Below are positions 17 to 7,555 of a stretch of DNA of 64,000 bases, in pieces. Numbering within the stretch: the stretch's first letter is position 1; each line of letters starts with the position of its first letter. Source of the DNA: Gemmatimonadales bacterium (GTDB taxonomy: Bacteria; Gemmatimonadota; Gemmatimonadetes; Gemmatimonadales; GWC2-71-9); assembly GCA_965249575.1 (NCBI GenBank), contig OZ252244.1, positions 1,935,127 to 1,999,126 of the forward strand, read 5' to 3'. The position numbers were made by a program, and so were the translations under genes. The notes under the pieces are model-generated. The model saw only the letters and a program-made list of their open reading frames with translations, did no database searches and was not told where the DNA came from.

Positions 17-1090
17 TTACAGTGCCTTCGACACCGCGTAGGCGGCATTCCGGCCTGACCGGACAGCGCCCGGTAGACCCGCCCGGTGGTACGCCGAGCC
101 CGCGACCTCGACTGGGCCGTTGCGCCGAAGCTCCTCCGTGATTGCTCCGAGCACCTGTTCGTGATCGGTCCCGTATTGGGATAGGGCATCGGGCCACCGT
201 GAGACCCAAGCCCGTGTGGTCGGTCCCGTCAGGCCGATCACCGGAGAGAGCGCTTCGACGGCGCGGGCCACCCACACGCCGTCAGGTCGATACATCCAGT
301 CCGGGCTCGGCCTGAAAAACGCCCTGAGGAGCACGGACTCCTCACCAGCGCGTCCCGAAAACTTGGATGAGCTATACGCACATGCTCGCAACTCGGAGTC
401 AATGCCGGGGGCGGCCACGAATCCGCTGCCCATGAGTGCATCGGCGACCGCGTCGCGTGGGCAGCCCAAGGATACCGACACGTTCGACTGGAAACGCATG
501 GCTTCAGCCACGGCGGCCACTTTCGACGCCCAGGGCCGCACGAGTGGGGCCATCACGTGTGGCGGGATCGCCAAGACGACAGCGTCAAACCTGCGGGTCG
601 TTCCATCGGCGAATTGGACGGTGATGCCGGCCGCCTCGGGCGAGATGCCAACGGCACGCGTGTTTAGGTGAACCGGCCCCTGCAGCTGGGAGGCGAGCGC
701 GTCGGTCAGCTGACCCATGCCCCGCCTGAGAGACGTGAGCCCGCGTCCCAAGTCCGACCGGGTTATCTGGATTCCCAGCAGCGAAGCCGCTTCACCGGCT
801 GCGAGGGGCTCGAGCGCGCCGTCGCGAAGCGCGAACGATTCACGATGGCGCTGTTCGATCAGTTCATTTGCCAGGCCGAGCCTTTGGCAGAGGCCGACGA
901 CGTCCTCGTCCCCGGCGACAAATCCCTCCGCGCCGTCGTCCACCACAAATCCATCGGCTCGCCGGGTCCACACCTGCCCCCCAACTCGAGGGCTCGCCTC
1001 AAACACCGTCGCGGTTATTCCAGTGGTCGTGAGATCGAACGCCGCCGTGAGACCGGCGACGCCCCCACCGACCACGGCGACGCGGCTCAC
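17..1090 (-). CDS. hemY: Protoporphyrinogen/coproporphyrinogen III oxidase, HemY/CgoX family (compact, 357 aa)
   Basis: ORF 17..1090. N-terminal FAD dinucleotide fold VAVVGGGVAGLTAAFDL. C-terminal AGSAYHRAGLPGAVRSG is typical of amine-oxidase-fold PPO. GTG start (cac at 1088-1090). Last gene of the hemD-hemQ-hemE-hemY string. Confidence 0.75.
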   Translation of the reverse strand: MSRVAVVGGGVAGLTAAFDLTTTGITATVFEASPRVGGQVWTRRADGFVVDDGAEGFVAGDEDVVGLCQRLGLANELIEQRHRESFALRDGALEPLAAGEAASLLGIQITRSDLGRGLTSLRRGMGQLTDALASQLQGPVHLNTRAVGISPEAAGITVQFADGTTRRFDAVVLAIPPHVMAPLVRPWASKVAAVAEAMRFQSNVSVSLGCPRDAVADALMGSGFVAAPGIDSELRACAYSSSKFSGRAGEESVLLRAFFRPSPDWMYRPDGVWVARAVEALSPVIGLTGPTTRAWVSRWPDALSQYGTDHEQVLGAITEELRRNGPVEVAGSAYHRAGLPGAVRSGRNAAYAVSKAL

Positions 1091-1199: not shown

Positions 1200-2234
1200 T
1201 CACACCCGTGCGGCGCTCCACTCGTGTACCATTTCGACCACTGCTCGCGCCCGATCGGGATCCGTTCCCTGTAGCACGCCATGCCCGAGATTGAAGACGT
1301 GGCCCGGACGTCCCTTGGCTCGCTCCAGAATGTCGTGTACCTGGGCGGTGAGCTCGCCGAGCGGGGCGAACAGCGCGGCAGGGTCGAGGTTGCCCTGAAC
1401 ACCCCGGTCTGGGACCGCCATCCATGCCTGGTCCAATGGAAGCCGCCAATCGACGCCGATGACATCTCCCCCTGCTTCGGCCATGAGGTCCAGCATCGCG
1501 GAGGCGCCGGTGGCAAAGTGAATTAACGGCACGTCCGATGTCGTGGCTCGGGAGATCGCCTTTGCGCTATGCGGCTGGACATACCGCCGGTAATCGCTTC
1601 GAGACAGACAGCCCACCCAGCTGTCGAAGAGTTGCAAGGCCTGCGCTCCCGCTGCTGCCTGGGCGTCGAGAAGGCTGCCGACAGTGGTAGCCAAGTGATC
1701 GAGCAGCCGGTGCCACGTGTCGGGATCGTTGTACATCAGCCGTTTCGTTCTCAGAAAGTCGCGGGTCGGCCCCCCCTCGACGGCGTAGCTGGCCAACGTG
1801 AACGGGGCGCCGGCGAAGCCGATCAATGGCACGCCGTCGTCCAACTCGGCGCGAGTGCGCCGAACCGCCTCGAGGACATGTCCCAGATCGCTTTGTGGGT
1901 CGATCGTCGGAAGGGTCGAGACGTCGGTCGGCGAGCGCACGGGGTTCGTGATCCTCGGTCCCTCACCCGCGGTGAACTCGAGTCCCAGACCGAGTGGCTC
2001 GAAGGGGAGCAAGATGTCGGCGAACAGGATAGCGGCGTCGACTCCCAGTCGCTCCACCGGTTGCAATGCCACCTCGCACGCCAGTTCCGGTCGGTGGCAA
2101 ATCTCGAGGATCGATGCCCGCTTCCGAATGTCCTGGTACTCCGGCAAGTAACGGCCCGCCTGGCGCATGAACCAAACGGGCGTGTGCGAAGCGGGCGCGC
2201 CACGACACGCCGCCAGGAAGGGATCAGCCGACAA
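1200..2234 (-). CDS. hemE: Uroporphyrinogen decarboxylase
   Basis: Signature PVWFMRQAGRYLPEYQ near the N-terminus, with full-length similarity pattern (ILFADILLP, GFAGAPFTLA). The ORF-track start at 2363 overlaps the upstream gene by 140 nt. TTG at 2232-2234 gives about 344 aa and a 10-nt overlap with the hemQ stop. Confidence 0.9.
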   Translation of the reverse strand: MSADPFLAACRGAPASHTPVWFMRQAGRYLPEYQDIRKRASILEICHRPELACEVALQPVERLGVDAAILFADILLPFEPLGLGLEFTAGEGPRITNPVRSPTDVSTLPTIDPQSDLGHVLEAVRRTRAELDDGVPLIGFAGAPFTLASYAVEGGPTRDFLRTKRLMYNDPDTWHRLLDHLATTVGSLLDAQAAAGAQALQLFDSWVGCLSRSDYRRYVQPHSAKAISRATTSDVPLIHFATGASAMLDLMAEAGGDVIGVDWRLPLDQAWMAVPDRGVQGNLDPAALFAPLGELTAQVHDILERAKGRPGHVFNLGHGVLQGTDPDRARAVVEMVHEWSAARV

Positions 2235-3261
2235 GTATCCGGCCTCCTTCGACCTCCACGCGATACGTCTTGATCGGTGTGACCGGCGGCCCGCCGAGGG
2301 GTTTGCCCGATGCGAGCTCGAACTTGCCCTGGTGCCAGGGGCATGTGAGTACCAGTCCGTCACCGTCGACGACGCCTTCGCTCAATGACGCTCGGCCGTG
2401 GGTGCACCGGTCGCTCACGGCATAGAAGCGCCCACCGACGTTGAAGAGCGCTATGGCGTCGCTCCCGAGGTAGATCCGCTTGCTGGACCCGGGAGGGACA
2501 TCGTCGACGTCCGCTACGGGGTAGAGGCCATTGCCACGACCGGCGTCCGCGGCTGCCGGCTTCGGCAGTGCGGCGCCCCCAAGTGAGTCGAGGACCTCGT
2601 ACAGAGACATTTGCACGCAGGTAAATGTCGGCGTGTCCTTGAGCGTGTACGACGACGCCTCGCTCTCCCGCAGCTCCATCACCAAGTCGAGGAACTCGCC
2701 CGGGTCGTCACCTTCGAACGCCACGATGAATTCCTGGTCGTCCAGGCCGAACGAATACGTCGTGTTGAGCCTGATTGATGGGTACTTTCTCCCTATCCGC
2801 ACGTGTTCGTTCATCATTTCCTGGCGGCGCTCCAGGGACGCGGAGTACCACTCCCGCTTCTTGATGAACGGGTACACGAAGAAGTAGCGATTGTCCGCCG
2901 GTCGGGTGACAAGCTGGTCGTGCTTGCCCTTGTGGTCTGGGAACTTGTAAAGCGAGCGCTTGGTCATCGCGAGGTAGCTATAGGGGATCGTCAAATAGCC
3001 GCCGAGGCGTGTCGAGAAGAGCGCGGTCTGGATGTGCTGGAGTGTCTCGACGTCCTCAGTAGCCTGCCACAGGAGGAAGTCCGAGTCCCCCCGAGTCCCG
3101 GCGAGGCTGTACGTGCGGAGCAATAGCTTCGCGTGAAAACTCTTTACCGCATGTGCGAACTGTTCTTTGTGCTCGATCTGCTCCGCGGCCTCGAGTCGCC
3201 GCCACGCAGCATCGAGCTTGTAGAACACATACCGGACAACCTGGCGCTTTTCCTTACTCAT
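2224..3261 (-). CDS. hemQ: Chlorite-dismutase-family coproheme decarboxylase (HemQ/ChdC) fused to a C-terminal Rieske [2Fe-2S] domain
   Basis: Residues 1 to about 235 look like HemQ/Cld family (VRYVFYKLD, FFVYPFIKKREWY, EFIVAFEGDDPGEF). After an Ala/Pro linker, residues about 255-345 carry the Rieske motif CTHGRASL...CPWHQGKF. Position between hemD and hemE. Confidence 0.75.
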   Translation of the reverse strand: MSKEKRQVVRYVFYKLDAAWRRLEAAEQIEHKEQFAHAVKSFHAKLLLRTYSLAGTRGDSDFLLWQATEDVETLQHIQTALFSTRLGGYLTIPYSYLAMTKRSLYKFPDHKGKHDQLVTRPADNRYFFVYPFIKKREWYSASLERRQEMMNEHVRIGRKYPSIRLNTTYSFGLDDQEFIVAFEGDDPGEFLDLVMELRESEASSYTLKDTPTFTCVQMSLYEVLDSLGGAALPKPAAADAGRGNGLYPVADVDDVPPGSSKRIYLGSDAIALFNVGGRFYAVSDRCTHGRASLSEGVVDGDGLVLTCPWHQGKFELASGKPLGGPPVTPIKTYRVEVEGGRILVG

Positions 3262-4024
3262 GTCCTGCTGGTCCTTTAGTCAAATCGGCGAACGCTGCAA
3301 CCAGCGCCGCCAGCAGTCCGTCTTCGGTGTACTCTTCGGCGACTTCTGTCACTTCGAGGCCGTACTCGCGGGCAGTCCGAGCCGTTATCGGTCCGATGCA
3401 GACGATCTTCGTTTTCGGCGGCGGTGGCCCTGCTTCCAGGAACCCTCGGACGGTGGACGAGCTGGTGAACGTGACGGCGTCGACGCCCGACAGGTTCGGC
3501 CGCTCTGTGGCGAGCGAGCGCGTATGATACACGGGGATCTCGTCGACGGTACCCCCTCGTGCCCGCAACCCTTCGGCCAATGCCTGTCGTGCGATGTCCG
3601 CTCTCGGGAGCAAGAACTGCTGGCCTTCAACGTCTCCCAGCCCTGCGAGAATCGCCTCCGCCACGTACTTGCTCGGCACGAGGTCAGGCTCGATCCCGTA
3701 CTTTCGGAGCGCGCTCGCCGTAGCCGGTCCAATTGCCGCGATCCGCGGTCCCTCGATCCCGGGTGTTCTCTGCAAAACCGCGTCAACCCCGTGCTTGCTG
3801 GTGAAAATGACCCAATCATACTCGGGGAGGCGGGCGAGGGCGGCTTCGAGCGGCGCTGAATCGGCCGGCTCGATTCGAATGGCCGGAATGACCACGGGCT
3901 CGGCTCCGAGAGCTTCGAGCCGGGCGGCGAGGCGGCCCGCATCGGGCTCGGGACGCGTGATGACGATCCGGCGGCCGGCCAGGGGATGTCTGGGGTTGGG
4001 GTGGGCTACAGCAGCGTGCTTCAT
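3254..4024 (-). CDS. hemD: Uroporphyrinogen-III synthase
   Basis: 256-aa ORF with RRIVITRPEPDAGRLAARLEALGAEPVVIPAIRIEP and two-lobe HemD-like repeats (DWVIFTSKHGV / VTFTSSSTV). Stop overlaps the hemQ start. Confidence 0.85.
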   Translation of the reverse strand: MKHAAVAHPNPRHPLAGRRIVITRPEPDAGRLAARLEALGAEPVVIPAIRIEPADSAPLEAALARLPEYDWVIFTSKHGVDAVLQRTPGIEGPRIAAIGPATASALRKYGIEPDLVPSKYVAEAILAGLGDVEGQQFLLPRADIARQALAEGLRARGGTVDEIPVYHTRSLATERPNLSGVDAVTFTSSSTVRGFLEAGPPPPKTKIVCIGPITARTAREYGLEVTEVAEEYTEDGLLAALVAAFADLTKGPAGHE

Positions 4025-4032
4025 GGACTAAA

Positions 4033-4210
4033 GGTGTAGGGGGTAGGGGGTAGGGGGTAGGGGTTGGGGAGTAGGGAGTGGAGACTTCCGATTGACGCGC
4101 GACAGCTCAGTGGTCGCCGGGCTCGCCGATGCACTACCCCCTACCCCCTACCCCCTACCCCTACGCCCTACCCTTCACTCCCTACTCCCCAATCCCTACT
4201 CCCTATCTCT
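4033..4210. repeat. G-run arm (TAGGGGG)n / about 50-nt spacer / C-run arm (CCCCCTA)n dyad, G-quadruplex-competent on both strands
   Basis: Arm 4033-4083 is ggtgtagggggtagggggtagggggtaggggttggggagtagggagtggag. Arm 4133-4210 is cactaccccctaccccctaccccctacccctacgccctacccttcactccctactccccaatccctactccctatc. It lies between the stop of ORF 4196..4627 and the hemD start codon (4024). Confidence 0.85.
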
Positions 4211-4627
4211 CAGTTCTTCCGCGTCCGGATACCGCTCCTTCACCACAGCGATGATCTGCCGAGCACGCTCCGGGTCCTTCTTGACCGTCTCGTAGATCTC
4301 CGCGAGCCGGAGCGCCGAGTTGATGTCCACCTGCCGGGATGCCCCCCGCCTTACATGGCTTTCTAGGAGTCTGATGGTGTCGTCCATGGTGGGTCGGGTC
4401 TGGGGTGGAGGTTCGCCAACCGCACCCTCCATGAGAAGGCGGCGCGCGAAATCCTCGATTGGGGAGAACACGTATTCCAGCACGAGGTCCCATGCCCACC
4501 AACAGACTCCGAAGGCACCCGATGCCGCGAACAGGCGGGGATCGCCGCTCGCGAACCCGAGCACGCCGAACGCGACGGTCGCCACCGCGAACATCGACCG
4601 AATCACGGTGCTAATGGAGACGGACAT
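4196..4627 (-). CDS. Hypothetical membrane protein (two predicted TM helices, charged helical C-terminus)
   Basis: ORF 4196..4687. The internal ATG at 4625-4627 (MSVSISTVIRSMFAVATVAFGVLGF...) avoids overlap with the upstream TonB receptor stop. No recognisable family. Confidence 0.5.
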   Translation of the reverse strand: MSVSISTVIRSMFAVATVAFGVLGFASGDPRLFAASGAFGVCWWAWDLVLEYVFSPIEDFARRLLMEGAVGEPPPQTRPTMDDTIRLLESHVRRGASRQVDINSALRLAEIYETVKKDPERARQIIAVVKERYPDAEELRDRE

Positions 4628-4646
4628 GGCGTTAAAGAAAGGGTGG

Positions 4647-7298
4647 TTAGAAGGTCGCCGTGACCCCTCCCAAGAATCTCCGCCCAATCACTGAGCCACC
4701 GTAGAGCTGGAACCGCTCCTGGTCGAATACGTTCGTCGCGACGGCATGGATACGGACGTTGTTGTTGATCTGGTAGCCCGCGTTGACGTTGAAGATCTGG
4801 GTCGCCGTTATGTAGCCGCTGAACACGCCGGCGGCCCAGGAATACCCATCCACCAGTCGTGCTGTCACACCAAAATCGACTCCCTGGAAGCCGCTGTAGC
4901 TGAGCGAGATGTTCCCTTTGTGCTTGGGCGTGTTGGGAAGCAGCATGTCGCCGACCTGCTGGCTCTTCACGTCAAAGTCGAAGAATGTGTAGGAGCCGTC
5001 TAACTTCCACTCGTCGGTAAGCAAGAAGCCCATCCCCAGCTCTACGCCACCTTCCGTGACCTCACCCGCGTTGGTATAGGAGACGACGATTGCGCGTGAG
5101 CCGTCGGGGAGCGTCGCCACCGGCTGGCCGCTGGCGGTGAGCCCATCTGCAAGCTGCTTGTAGCCGGCCTGGAGGATCGGGATGTTCGCGCGGAGCGGGT
5201 GGCCGGATGGGAGCATGGCCGCGGCCAGCGCTGCATCGAGCTGTGAAAGGTTCGTCGGGATATCGATACCCCCGTCGGTCAGCAGGTAACGGGGGTAGTC
5301 CGGGTTCACACCGGGCAGCAGGTCGGTGATGAAGTTGTCCAGGGTGTTGATGTACAGGTCGACGCTAGCGTATACGCGCGGGGTGAGGTTCCCCTTGTAG
5401 CCGAGCTCCCATCCCGTCAGTTTCTCGACGTCTAACGCATCGTTCCCGAGCGCCAACACGGGCGTCATAGCCGAGAAATCCCAGGGAATGTCGTTCGGGA
5501 GATTCAGGCCGGCGAGCAGGGGGCCAAGCGGAGAACCGTTCGCGCTCCGGAACAGCGATTCGAGCCCCGCCTCGAGCGTCGCCTGGCGAGCGTCGGGAGC
5601 GCCAGCCGCCGCACGGAGGAAGAACTCCGAGTAGTTTGCCGACTGGAACGCGCGATTGAACGTGAAGCGGATCGAGTGGTTCTCGTTCGGGCTGAACACC
5701 AAGCCTGCCTTAGGCGAGAATTGTGCGCTGAACAGATCGCCGTTGTCGTAGCGGGCGGCCGCTACCGCCTTGAACATCGGCGAGAACCTGTACTCGACTT
5801 GGCCGTAGGCCGAGTAGTACTTGTCGTTGCGGTCGTCGTTGATCGCGTCCATCAGGGTCGCCTTGGTGTTAACCCCGTAGTTCCGGAACGACGCGCCGAG
5901 GACGACACGGCCGCGATCCTCTGCGAACGGTTGGTTTACCTGTCCCTCGACGTGGATGATGTTCGACACGTCGCTGATCGGTTGGCCGGAGGACAGGGAG
6001 ATCTGGCCGCCGCCGGATCCGGTCCGCTCGCCGCTGCGGCCCGAGTACCAGGCCATGACGTTGAACCGTTCGGCTGACCAGGCGAGCCGAGCCCACGGAC
6101 GGAAGGCCTCGACGACCTGGACCCTGCCGATCCCGGTCACGAAGATCTCGTTGTGGACTCGTGTGAGGCCGCCTTCTGCCGTGCCGATCGAGCCATCCCC
6201 AGCGTAGTAGTCGAAGCGGGCCGAGCCGTAAATGCTCTCTAGATCGTCACGCTCGCCCGTGGCACGCCCGGTGGTGGGATCGACGCTTTGGCCGTTCAAC
6301 GGTATCGGCTCGATGTTAGGCAGGACGAGGAAGTCGGTGGTGCCGGCGTACTCGCGTCGCAGATCGAGGGAATCGAAGGCCGTGCGCGAGCGCGACCAGG
6401 TGTCGCTCCGCGTGTAACCGAAGTTGACGCGATACCCGAACTGCCCGTACGCGGCCACGCCGGCGTGCCGGATGTCTCCACGGAACGTGCTCAGCTCGCC
6501 GCCCGCCAGGCTGATTTTCGTTCCCACGATCTCCCTGGCAGTTGGCGTCGTGATGTTGACCACGCCACTGAATGCGTTGGCTCCGTAAAGAGCCGAACCC
6601 GGCCCACGCACCATTTCGATCCGCCCCATGTCTTCGAGCGGGGTCGAGAGGCCGTTCCACTCCTGGTTTCCGAGGAGCGCGATCGCGAGGTCTCGCCCGT
6701 CGAGAAGGACCAGGACTCGCCGGTTGAGGGACGAGTTGAAGCCTCGTGCGTTGAGGTTGATGTCGTTGACCCCACTTTGGACGACATCGACGCCAGGGAC
6801 GGAGGCGAGTGCCAACGGCGCCTGCGCCGTCATCGACAGCGCCTGGACGTCGCGGGTATCGATCATGGTCACGGCGGCCGGAGCCTCGACCACCCGTTCG
6901 GGCGCGCGGGAAGCCGCCTGCACCACGATCTCACCGAGCGAGATCGGCTGGGATTCCAGGGCTACGTCGACGGTCTGGGTGGTCCCTGCAGTCACGGTCA
7001 CCGGAACTTCGCGTGGCTTGTATCCCAGCCACCGCACGAAGATCGCGTGTTGTCCGACCGGCACGCGCTGCAACGCGTATCTGCCGTCGGTTCCGGTCGC
7101 GGCTTCGATGCCGGTTCCAACGACCCGAACGAGGGCACCCGCCAGCGCCGCGCCGTCGACGGCGCGTGTGACGTTCCCCTCGATCTGGCCGGTCTGGAGT
7201 TGTGCCACGGCGGGTCGGCCGAAGCAGATCGTCGCGGTCAAGCAAAACGCCAGCCCAGTCCCCAGTCGCGACCGAAAGGGTGTGGAACGCTCGAGCAT
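4647..7298 (-). CDS. TonB-dependent receptor with N-terminal carboxypeptidase-regulatory-like domain
   Basis: Signal peptide LAFCLTATICFGRPAVAQ. CarboxypepD_reg-like GNVTRAVDGAALAGALVRVVGTGIEAATGTDGRYAL. Plug (DVQALSMTAQ...VVQSG...NARGF) and a long beta-barrel ending in the terminal aromatic residue ...GGVTATF. Start taken at ATG 7296-7298. Confidence 0.85.
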   Translation of the reverse strand: MLERSTPFRSRLGTGLAFCLTATICFGRPAVAQLQTGQIEGNVTRAVDGAALAGALVRVVGTGIEAATGTDGRYALQRVPVGQHAIFVRWLGYKPREVPVTVTAGTTQTVDVALESQPISLGEIVVQAASRAPERVVEAPAAVTMIDTRDVQALSMTAQAPLALASVPGVDVVQSGVNDINLNARGFNSSLNRRVLVLLDGRDLAIALLGNQEWNGLSTPLEDMGRIEMVRGPGSALYGANAFSGVVNITTPTAREIVGTKISLAGGELSTFRGDIRHAGVAAYGQFGYRVNFGYTRSDTWSRSRTAFDSLDLRREYAGTTDFLVLPNIEPIPLNGQSVDPTTGRATGERDDLESIYGSARFDYYAGDGSIGTAEGGLTRVHNEIFVTGIGRVQVVEAFRPWARLAWSAERFNVMAWYSGRSGERTGSGGGQISLSSGQPISDVSNIIHVEGQVNQPFAEDRGRVVLGASFRNYGVNTKATLMDAINDDRNDKYYSAYGQVEYRFSPMFKAVAAARYDNGDLFSAQFSPKAGLVFSPNENHSIRFTFNRAFQSANYSEFFLRAAAGAPDARQATLEAGLESLFRSANGSPLGPLLAGLNLPNDIPWDFSAMTPVLALGNDALDVEKLTGWELGYKGNLTPRVYASVDLYINTLDNFITDLLPGVNPDYPRYLLTDGGIDIPTNLSQLDAALAAAMLPSGHPLRANIPILQAGYKQLADGLTASGQPVATLPDGSRAIVVSYTNAGEVTEGGVELGMGFLLTDEWKLDGSYTFFDFDVKSQQVGDMLLPNTPKHKGNISLSYSGFQGVDFGVTARLVDGYSWAAGVFSGYITATQIFNVNAGYQINNNVRIHAVATNVFDQERFQLYGGSVIGRRFLGGVTATF

Positions 7299-7376
7299 GG
7301 TTGGATCCCTCGCTAGGGTCGATGATCGGTCAGGCCGCGCGGGGCGGCACCGCCAAGAATGCATCGTATCAAGGAT

Positions 7377-7482: not shown

Positions 7483-7555
<73 letters not shown>

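Follow-up and report, generated by a model that had tools for sequence, protein, structure and literature searches.

Coproheme decarboxylase (ChdC, also named HemQ) catalyses the last step of the coproporphyrin-dependent haem pathway, and its chemistry is understood from in vitro work with H2O2. According to a history of haem biosynthesis that appeared in Chem Rev in August 2026, ChdC works with H2O2 or flavin mononucleotide (FMN) in vitro and its oxidant in vivo is unsettled, in agreement with the background given in the initial annotation of the DNA described here. This DNA, called the window below, is a stretch of 64,000 nucleotides from a Gemmatimonadales bacterium (GenBank assembly GCA_965249575.1, contig OZ252244.1, positions 1,935,127 to 1,999,126), and it was found to encode a protein in which a predicted ChdC domain is followed by a C-terminal Rieske [2Fe-2S] ferredoxin domain (chdC::Rieske). 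Judged from sequence, such proteins form a new, distinct and monophyletic subfamily of terminal haem synthase, which is spread over several phyla and carries a built-in electron-transfer domain. A paper discussing the fusion was not found in full-text literature searches, which included the August 2026 haem review and covered the key ChdC papers in part.

The closest described counterparts of the N-terminal domain are the actinobacterial ChdCs (Streptomyces coelicolor, 9miq; Corynebacterium diphtheriae, 6xub and 6xuc). These carry out the same pathway step. They have in common with the window protein the proximal His, the catalytic Tyr with a basic residue four positions further on, the (V/I)-R-x-N-T strand and, where chlorite dismutases (Cld) have their Arg, a residue that is small or hydrophobic, although the window protein is only ~28% identical to them. 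The PDB matches to solved ChdCs cover ~235 columns only and none of them has a Rieske domain. The C-terminal domain has its counterparts in the ferredoxins of ring-hydroxylating oxygenases (BphF, 2e4p and 1fqt; CarAc, 1vck; TodB, 3dqy; HcaC), with which it shares the fold, the CxH...CxxH boxes, a length of ~100 aa and the lack of a bc1-type disulfide Cys. However, the oxygenase ferredoxins are free proteins, whereas the Rieske domain of the window is covalently fused to a haem enzyme with no oxygenase or reductase encoded nearby. A further difference from the oxygenase ferredoxins is a Cys which precedes the second ligand Cys by four residues and is near-universal in the fusions, though not present in the window protein.

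The ChdC lineage repeatedly gains extra domains. Haloferax PitA (a Cld-like domain with an ABM domain) and the Nitrospiria PCP_red::ChdC proteins are other ChdCs with accessory domains, the added domain never being a Rieske domain. The HemH-HemQ (CpfC-ChdC) protein of Cutibacterium acnes likewise ties ChdC to another component, but here the partner is the preceding pathway enzyme in N-terminal position and not a C-terminal carrier. Neither the August 2026 Chem Rev history nor a review of ferrochelatase clusters mentions any other ChdC fusion.

The fusion gene and its ChdC domain

The gene and its parts are as follows.

2224..3261, minus strand: chdC::Rieske gene (translation of the open reading frame, ORF: 345 codons, ATG start, TGA stop at 2224-2226)
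2578..3261, minus strand: ChdC/HemQ domain, residues 1-228 (Pfam Chlor_dismutase; alignment to the ChdCs of Listeria monocytogenes, LmChdC, and Staphylococcus aureus, SaChdC)
2527..2577, minus strand: Ala/Pro-rich linker, residues 229-245, 17 residues (alignment of 65 Gemmatimonadota fusions)
2227..2526, minus strand: Rieske [2Fe-2S] ferredoxin domain, residues 246-345 (Pfam Rieske; nearest families in PDB and NCBIfam)

The initial annotation had placed a 345-aa ORF at 2224-3261, a placement that stands and to which the minus strand can be added. It had described a Cld/HemQ-like body, an Ala/Pro-rich linker and a Rieske ferredoxin with the boxes CTHGRASL and CPWHQGKF, and all of these strings are found in the translation, including the quoted linker AALPKPAAADAGRG. 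A stop between the two domains, named there as a possible objection, is not present, as the ORF is intact, with zero stops or frameshifts separating the Chlor_dismutase and Rieske parts. The protein is a 100% match to a database cluster (P0001). The hidden Markov model (HMM) scan proposed in the same annotation matched both domains, namely Chlor_dismutase (PF06778) at residues 32-217 (E 8.1e-58, 195.6 bits) and Rieske (PF00355) at residues 247-333 (E 1.4e-19; Rieske_2 was matched too).

By sequence and by predicted fold, the solved proteins closest to the N-terminal domain are the ChdCs of S. coelicolor (9miq, 9mhq; 1e-26) and C. diphtheriae (6xub). Actinobacterial ChdCs outrank chlorite dismutases in the PDB sequence search, and the five PDB alignments listed are all to ChdC variants or BphF. 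The AlphaFold2 (AF2) model has the double ferredoxin-like, Cld-type fold, with template modelling (TM) scores (target) of 0.72-0.83 against ChdC structures. The HMM match, the best structures and the haem-operon context thus bear out the Cld/HemQ-like body. Neither the Pfam nor the NCBIfam scan listed a DyP/EfeB family at E <= 0.01, and the objection that the domain could be DyP/EfeB or another Cld-fold protein unrelated to haem synthesis found no support in Pfam at that threshold.

As alignment references the hemQ genes of L. monocytogenes and S. aureus were used, obtained by tblastn of plasmids, in which a true Cld was not found. The MAFFT alignment to LmChdC and SaChdC reproduces the published residue numbers. 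In it Leu165 corresponds to LmChdC Q187 and SaChdC Q185, a position which we take to be that of the essential distal Arg of chlorite dismutases. Tyr130 (2872-2874) corresponds to LmChdC Y147 and SaChdC Y145 and, by phmmer, to Y135 of the C. diphtheriae enzyme (CdChdC), which are reported to be the radical-forming catalytic Tyr of ChdC. The HemQ Tyr and the absence of the Cld distal Arg, for which an alignment check had been advised, are therefore both seen, with Y130 present and Leu165 at the Arg position. His153 (2803-2805) is the proximal His (LmChdC H174, SaChdC H172). Lys134 aligns with LmChdC K151 and SaChdC K149, and a ChdC review describes a basic residue that binds propionate 4, Lys in Firmicutes and Arg in Actinobacteria.

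Conservation was counted over 244 full-length fusions from Gemmatimonadota, Chloroflexota (Anaerolineae) and Armatimonas. Y130, K134 and H153 are kept in all 244, and Cys215, a non-ligand Cys of the ChdC domain, is 99% conserved. The distal base of CdChdC, His118, aligns with H114 of the window protein, which is not conserved among the fusions, and no conserved distal base was found in the loop 103-126 across the aligned fusions. All of the sequence-level features tested are those of a ChdC, save the NCBIfam score, and the assignment of the N-terminal domain as a coproheme decarboxylase (ChdC/HemQ) is supported at this level. A functional chlorite dismutase was rejected, given the Leu aligned with the distal Arg and the lower rank of Clds by sequence. 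R164 was also rejected as a displaced Cld-type Arg: the same Arg is found in proven actinobacterial ChdCs, and it aligns with LmChdC Q186 and not with Q187.

The linker and the Rieske domain

In the alignment of 65 Gemmatimonadota fusions the linker varies in length by no more than one residue while its sequence is variable. Mean pairwise identity among the Gemmatimonadota fusions is 0.70 in the ChdC domain and 0.65 in the Rieske domain as against 0.37 in the linker, which together with the fixed linker length indicates that both domains are under purifying selection and that their spacing is constrained. Within the linker, residues 236-241 have a predicted local distance difference test (pLDDT) value below 50 in the AF2 model.

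The Rieske domain has its cluster ligands in box I (C286-T-H288; 2398-2406) and box II (C307-P-W-H310; 2332-2343), giving the pattern CxH-X18-CxxH, and all four ligands are kept in 244 of the 244 fusions. The nearest PDB matches are BphF (2e4p, 4e-21), CarAc (1vck) and TodB (3dqy), with the b6f Rieske protein far weaker, and the nearest NCBIfam families are the HcaC and AndAb ferredoxin subunits. The disulfide Cys of the high-potential bc1/b6f type (CxHxGC and CPCH) is absent, the boxes reading CTHGRA and CPWH. The sequence type of a Rieske protein predicts its midpoint potential; ferredoxins of the oxygenase type lie at about -150 mV and pass electrons one at a time from an NAD(P)H reductase to an iron centre that activates O2. 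By its sequence, the Rieske domain of the fusion is of this low-potential, oxygenase-type donor class. The additional Cys303, four residues before the second ligand Cys (C-x-x-x-C-P-W-H), is found in 241 of the fusions and across phyla. It belongs to a group of residues (R10, Q28, Q66, E69, R164 and Cys303) whose conservation is confined to the fusions and which are candidates for a docking or relay surface.

Distribution and origin of the fusion

The initial annotation had suggested a survey of how widespread the fusion is. It was found in at least three phyla (Gemmatimonadota, Chloroflexota, Armatimonas), the 244 homologues being those counted above. Among the database clusters, each of the best 120 is a full-length fusion, with 62-70% identity, and those that are named belong to Gemmatimonadota/Gemmatimonadales. 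For the survey of loci, with one genome per GTDB species, the best 80 of 317 stretches encoding a relative were fetched; all 80 encode full-length fusions and nearly all are from Gemmatimonadota, two being labelled 'uncultured bacterium'. An exhaustive, profile-free scan of 1.84 billion cluster representatives found the full architecture in few 50%-identity clusters (P0121, P0122, P0123 and P0125), after which come stand-alone HemQ-like proteins at 40-50% identity. When the search was repeated with P0122, a second large fusion clade was obtained, 45% identical to the window protein and found in Chloroflexota (Anaerolineae, Anaerolineaceae) and Armatimonas.

The fusions form one clade, apart from the stand-alone forms, in a neighbour-joining tree of the N-terminal domains (without bootstrap); this is consistent with a single origin of the fusion. 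On these sequence comparisons the fusion is a large monophyletic subfamily present in at least three phyla. A chance or artefactual joining by assembly or frameshift was excluded by the intact ORF and by the same architecture in the 120 clusters, the 80 loci and the 244 homologues. Public records name the fusion only automatically, as 'chlorite dismutase family protein', as 'Rieske 2Fe-2S domain-containing protein' or with a JGI double label.

Other combinations were observed among the relatives. The 736-aa protein P0123 (L081:1867-4077), intact on four metagenomic contigs, joins three parts, namely ChdC, Rieske and a fused AhbA/AhbB-like siroheme decarboxylase. Its composition hints at a hybrid route in which siroheme would be converted to haem by way of coproheme, with ChdC instead of AhbD as the last enzyme. 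At another locus (L082) a stand-alone HemQ gene overlaps an AhbA/AhbB gene. A PCP_red::ChdC fusion, with PCP_red (the C-terminal domain of protochlorophyllide reductase) in N-terminal position, is encoded on metagenomic contigs (L084:1277-2269; P0128, P0281). Its cluster includes a Nitrospiria-labelled member, and its ChdC part is closely related to that of the Rieske fusion; on one contig of this type a stand-alone Rieske protein (listed at L085:877-1248) is encoded two genes away on the opposite strand. In three contexts in sister lineages, a gene for a ~335-aa aldo-keto reductase lies directly upstream of HemQ or its AhbAB partner (L081:713-1726, L082:3928-4944 and L094:2504-3511; also L095 and L096), one cluster having a Rubrobacteraceae-labelled member.

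Genomic context

In the window, the fusion gene is flanked by the following haem genes.

3254..4024, minus strand: hemD, uroporphyrinogen-III synthase (Pfam HEM4, 4.6e-63)
1200..2234, minus strand: hemE, uroporphyrinogen decarboxylase (URO-D, 3e-126; TIGR01464, 401.5 bits against a cutoff of 302.95)
17..1090, minus strand: short HemY/CgoX-like flavin adenine dinucleotide (FAD) oxidase, 357 aa (Amino_oxidase, 3.6e-44; TIGR00562, 124.7 bits against a cutoff of 97.85)

The TAA stop of hemD (3254-3256) overlaps the ATG of chdC (3261-3259) by 8 nt. The longest ORF of hemE reaches back to 2363, with homology only from about residue 46, and the tblastn match of the HemE from a related locus (L007) to the window begins at 2228, where chdC ends. 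It is likely, from the sequence, that hemE starts at a TTG at 2234, 8 nt past a GGAGG (2247-2243), which gives an 11-nt overlap with the chdC stop. The position between hemD and hemE with overlapping stop and start codons, as first described, is thus retained, with overlaps of 8 nt and 11 nt (the latter with the hemE start as proposed), and chdC::Rieske is translationally coupled to the upstream hemD and the downstream hemE. The gene order of the window (hemD, chdC::Rieske, hemE, short hemY) is a minority arrangement, and no ferrochelatase gene was found anywhere in the 64 kb.

The order found in 59 of 80 Gemmatimonadota loci is chdC::Rieske, hemE, a 305-aa ferrochelatase and the short HemY, so that the fusion stands in front of the hemE-H-Y block that is classic for the coproporphyrin pathway. 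Directly upstream and on the same strand, most Gemmatimonadales have an aa3-type oxidase operon, consisting of cytochrome c, COX2, COX1, COX3 and COX4, as well as heme O synthase (for example L036:5921-7705, L064:5872-6591, L061:8453-8740 and L046:2109-2960). Haem synthesis and the haem-copper oxidase form one supercluster in most Gemmatimonadales, while the window is without it. The Armatimonas locus is a complete operon that reads hemA-C-D-B-E-Y-L, chdC::Rieske, ferrochelatase, and the Anaerolineaceae locus reads chdC::Rieske, ferrochelatase, an AhbD-like gene and then hemA-C-D-B-E-Y. Ferrochelatase also follows the P0122 fusion, and it is an immediate or near neighbour of the fusion in all three phyla. 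AhbD brings about the same net reaction, coproheme to haem b, but is an unrelated radical-SAM/SPASM enzyme that is independent of O2; the AhbD-like radical-SAM/SPASM gene beside the Anaerolineaceae fusion (L090:10342-11457) scores 461 bits with TIGR04545, under the cutoff of 500. The locus suggests a pairing of aerobic and anaerobic coproheme decarboxylases. Since coproheme is common to the coproporphyrin and siroheme routes, all of the contexts point to coproheme decarboxylation as the function.

Two neighbours differ between the phyla. Compared with Bacillus subtilis HemY (3i6d), residues 3-106 of the short HemY correspond to 7-113 and residues ~110-349 to ~225-460, so that the short form lacks ~110 internal residues (roughly 115-225 in the Bacillus numbering). 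This form, of ~356 aa, is conserved beside the fusion in Gemmatimonadales (e.g. L007:12978-14066), and HemY is of normal length in Armatimonas and Anaerolineaceae (458 and 486 aa). The ferrochelatases of Anaerolineaceae (L090:9144-10193), Armatimonas (L092:9130-10170) and the P0122 locus (L083:3412-4461) have a tail rich in Cys with the pattern C-x(3-9)-C-x3-CC, a possible [2Fe-2S] motif, and the 305-aa Gemmatimonadales enzyme (L007:12064-12981) has a single Cys. That the Rieske cluster makes up for a [2Fe-2S] cluster lacking in ferrochelatase was rejected as a general rule, given the Cys motif that the Anaerolineae and Armatimonas ferrochelatases carry themselves.

Three Gemmatimonadota loci (L007:5401-14066, also L001 and L004) contain two sets of late haem genes in one cluster. 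Besides a true hemN (525 bits), the first set encodes a 364-aa ferrochelatase and a HemY of full length, and the second comprises hemD, chdC::Rieske, hemE, the 305-aa ferrochelatase and the short HemY. Protoporphyrin-type and coproporphyrin-type branches seem to lie side by side in these three loci. In the window itself, the upstream side of hemD has a 163-aa ORF without a Pfam match (4196-4687, minus strand) and a gene for a 905-aa TonB-dependent receptor with a CarboxypepD_reg domain (4647-7364, minus strand); a tRNA gene is found at 7483-7555 (plus strand).

Possible role of the Rieske domain

It is quite possible, though we hold it tentatively, that the Rieske domain delivers electrons to the coproheme iron, with O2 replacing free H2O2 as the oxidant. 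The built-in redox partner proposed in the initial annotation, with turnover linked to O2 or another acceptor, is thus plausible. The gene product would then be the terminal enzyme of the coproporphyrin-dependent haem pathway with a tethered low-potential Rieske ferredoxin. A separately encoded NAD(P)H-dependent reductase would reduce the Rieske cluster, the flavin of CgoX being the other possible electron source, and the cluster would hand single electrons to the ferric coproheme iron. The ferrous coproheme would bind O2, and a second electron with protons would lead to a ferric-hydroperoxo species and then to Compound I. This would in turn give a radical on Tyr130, followed by hydrogen abstraction at the propionate beta-carbon and loss of CO2, and two such decarboxylations would yield haem b. 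The net requirement for each vinyl group would be O2, 2 e- and 2 H+, and free H2O2 would not be needed.

The ferric/ferrous couple of ChdC-bound coproheme is reported to lie at about -200 mV. If both this value and the -150 mV of the Rieske class are right, electron transfer between the two centres would be roughly isoenergetic, with O2 binding drawing it forward. In P450 OleT, a haem-dependent oxidative decarboxylase that runs on H2O2, with redox partners, and in fusions of the P450-RhF type, peroxide can give way to O2 and NAD(P)H via an Fe-S partner. The analogy would be functional only; the folds are unrelated and the P450s have a proximal thiolate ligand. A precedent is found in a review, according to which ChdC-bound coproheme auto-activates dissolved O2 to peroxide with slow turnover, which suggests that electrons and O2 suffice. 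The lack of a conserved distal base in the fusions by itself argues for poor reactivity with H2O2, as in the Firmicute ChdCs (ChdC review). The nearest Rieske relatives carry electrons to an O2-activating iron, which favours a donor role for the domain, and the oxidase operon with heme O synthase upstream in most Gemmatimonadales indicates an aerobic setting. The O2-independent AhbD-like enzyme co-encoded in Anaerolineaceae would make the fusion the O2-using alternative, which speaks against an anaerobic role of the cluster as an acceptor.

Several observations weigh against this account of the enzyme. The fusion protein is below the equivalog cutoff of the NCBIfam model HemQ_actino (129.8 bits against 235). 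In the window, codon 303 (2353-2355) encodes Leu, the sole Leu case among the 244 fusions, so that the otherwise conserved Cys303 is missing. A ferredoxin reductase was not found among the conserved neighbours of the 80 loci (clustered and compared with Pfam), the ten upstream genes of the window or the Armatimonas and Anaerolineaceae loci, a search that took in these neighbourhoods and not whole genomes. The AF2 model has a pLDDT of 84 and a predicted TM score (pTM) of 0.68, and the pTM does not settle the domain packing. A one-electron carrier must also deliver two electrons per O2. Finally, stand-alone ChdCs work without a Rieske domain, and the domain may therefore be regulatory.

The last point leads to a different explanation, which we regard as unlikely, in which H2O2 is used as in the stand-alone enzymes and the Rieske cluster is non-catalytic. 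It would be a sensor (of redox state, O2, NO or Fe-S status) or a structural element, gating haem synthesis or assembling with ferrochelatase. This would fit the stand-alone ChdCs at 40-50% identity without such a domain, the close proximity of ferrochelatase in three phyla, the lack of a reductase linked to the fusion at the loci examined and the recurrence in the haem pathway of [2Fe-2S] centres without a known role (review of ferrochelatase clusters). However, the ferredoxins to which the domain is most closely related are dedicated electron shuttles and not sensors, and a conservation of the Rieske domain near that of the catalytic domain, with a linker of fixed length across phyla, suggests a precise catalytic geometry; the C-terminal Cys motif of the Anaerolineae and Armatimonas ferrochelatases also means that the Rieske cluster is not a simple replacement for the ferrochelatase cluster. 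Doubts about the N-terminal domain itself carry far less weight. It scores under the NCBIfam HemQ equivalog cutoffs, the second model, PRK12276, giving 86 bits against 253 in the NCBIfam scan, and public records say only 'chlorite dismutase family protein'. Fusions from Chloroflexota and Armatimonas score below these cutoffs as well, and scores under both indicate that the subfamily lies outside the curated Firmicute and actinobacterial models. That the domain is not a haem-synthesis enzyme but a Cld, a DyP/EfeB or another Cld-fold protein, or that the fusion is an assembly or frameshift artefact, is hardly credible in view of the Leu instead of Arg at the Cld distal position, the absence of any DyP/EfeB family from the Pfam matches at E <= 0.01, the haem operons around the gene in three phyla and the shared architecture of the intact ORF and its 244 full-length homologues.

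The cluster could also serve partners other than ChdC, as an electron relay for the whole haem-synthesis complex, taking electrons from the FAD of the short CgoX, providing them for Fe(III) reduction at ferrochelatase or passing them to haem O/haem A synthesis. The Gemmatimonadales fusion travels with the truncated HemY (~110 residues fewer) and the cluster-less 305-aa ferrochelatase, heme O synthase and the aa3 oxidase operon lie directly upstream, and a ChdC-CpfC interaction has been reported (August 2026 review). Such a relay is nevertheless decidedly improbable, as the Armatimonas and Anaerolineaceae fusions are accompanied by HemY of normal length (458 and 486 aa), and the stretches examined there contain no oxidase operon, so that partners specific to Gemmatimonadales cannot explain the fusion generally, and the covalent tether points to ChdC itself as the client. 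Electron flow in the opposite direction, with the Rieske cluster as the acceptor for a decarboxylation free of O2 and peroxide and the electrons passed to the respiratory chain, appears very unlikely. Decarboxylation is a net two-electron oxidation per propionate, and anaerobic turnover is conceivable since FMN can replace H2O2 for ChdC (August 2026 review); but a ferredoxin of the low-potential sequence class is a poor oxidant, ChdC chemistry needs a strong two-electron oxidant for Compound I and the Tyr radical (reviews), the adjoining O2-independent AhbD-like enzyme would make an anaerobic ChdC redundant in Anaerolineaceae, and the oxidase context in Gemmatimonadales is aerobic.

Significance

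A strongly conserved natural fusion of ChdC with an electron carrier is a Rosetta-stone clue, and it suggests, at least for this subfamily, a reaction in which electrons take part. Because both parts are found in a single polypeptide, the physiological oxidant or redox partner of ChdC becomes directly testable, with O2 and a reductant compared with peroxide. The finding may also bear on the unexplained [2Fe-2S] clusters elsewhere in the haem pathway. It extends the coproporphyrin pathway, in a distinctive enzyme form, to diderm soil and water phyla which have barely been studied biochemically. The fusion, which always lies in haem operons, is found in at least three phyla that are abundant environmental groups, and this multi-phylum spread raises the significance over that apparent from the initial annotation.

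A broader proposal, to which we assign little probability, is that haem synthesis ends peroxide-free in Gemmatimonadota, Anaerolineae and Armatimonadota, where ChdC::Rieske would be a monooxygenase-like enzyme dependent on O2 and electrons, the electrons possibly coming from the preceding six-electron oxidation of coproporphyrinogen by CgoX, which in Gemmatimonadales has the truncated form. If this is true, the pathway would recycle its own reducing equivalents and never release H2O2, and the physiological redox partner of ChdC and a second natural mode of its activation would be identified.

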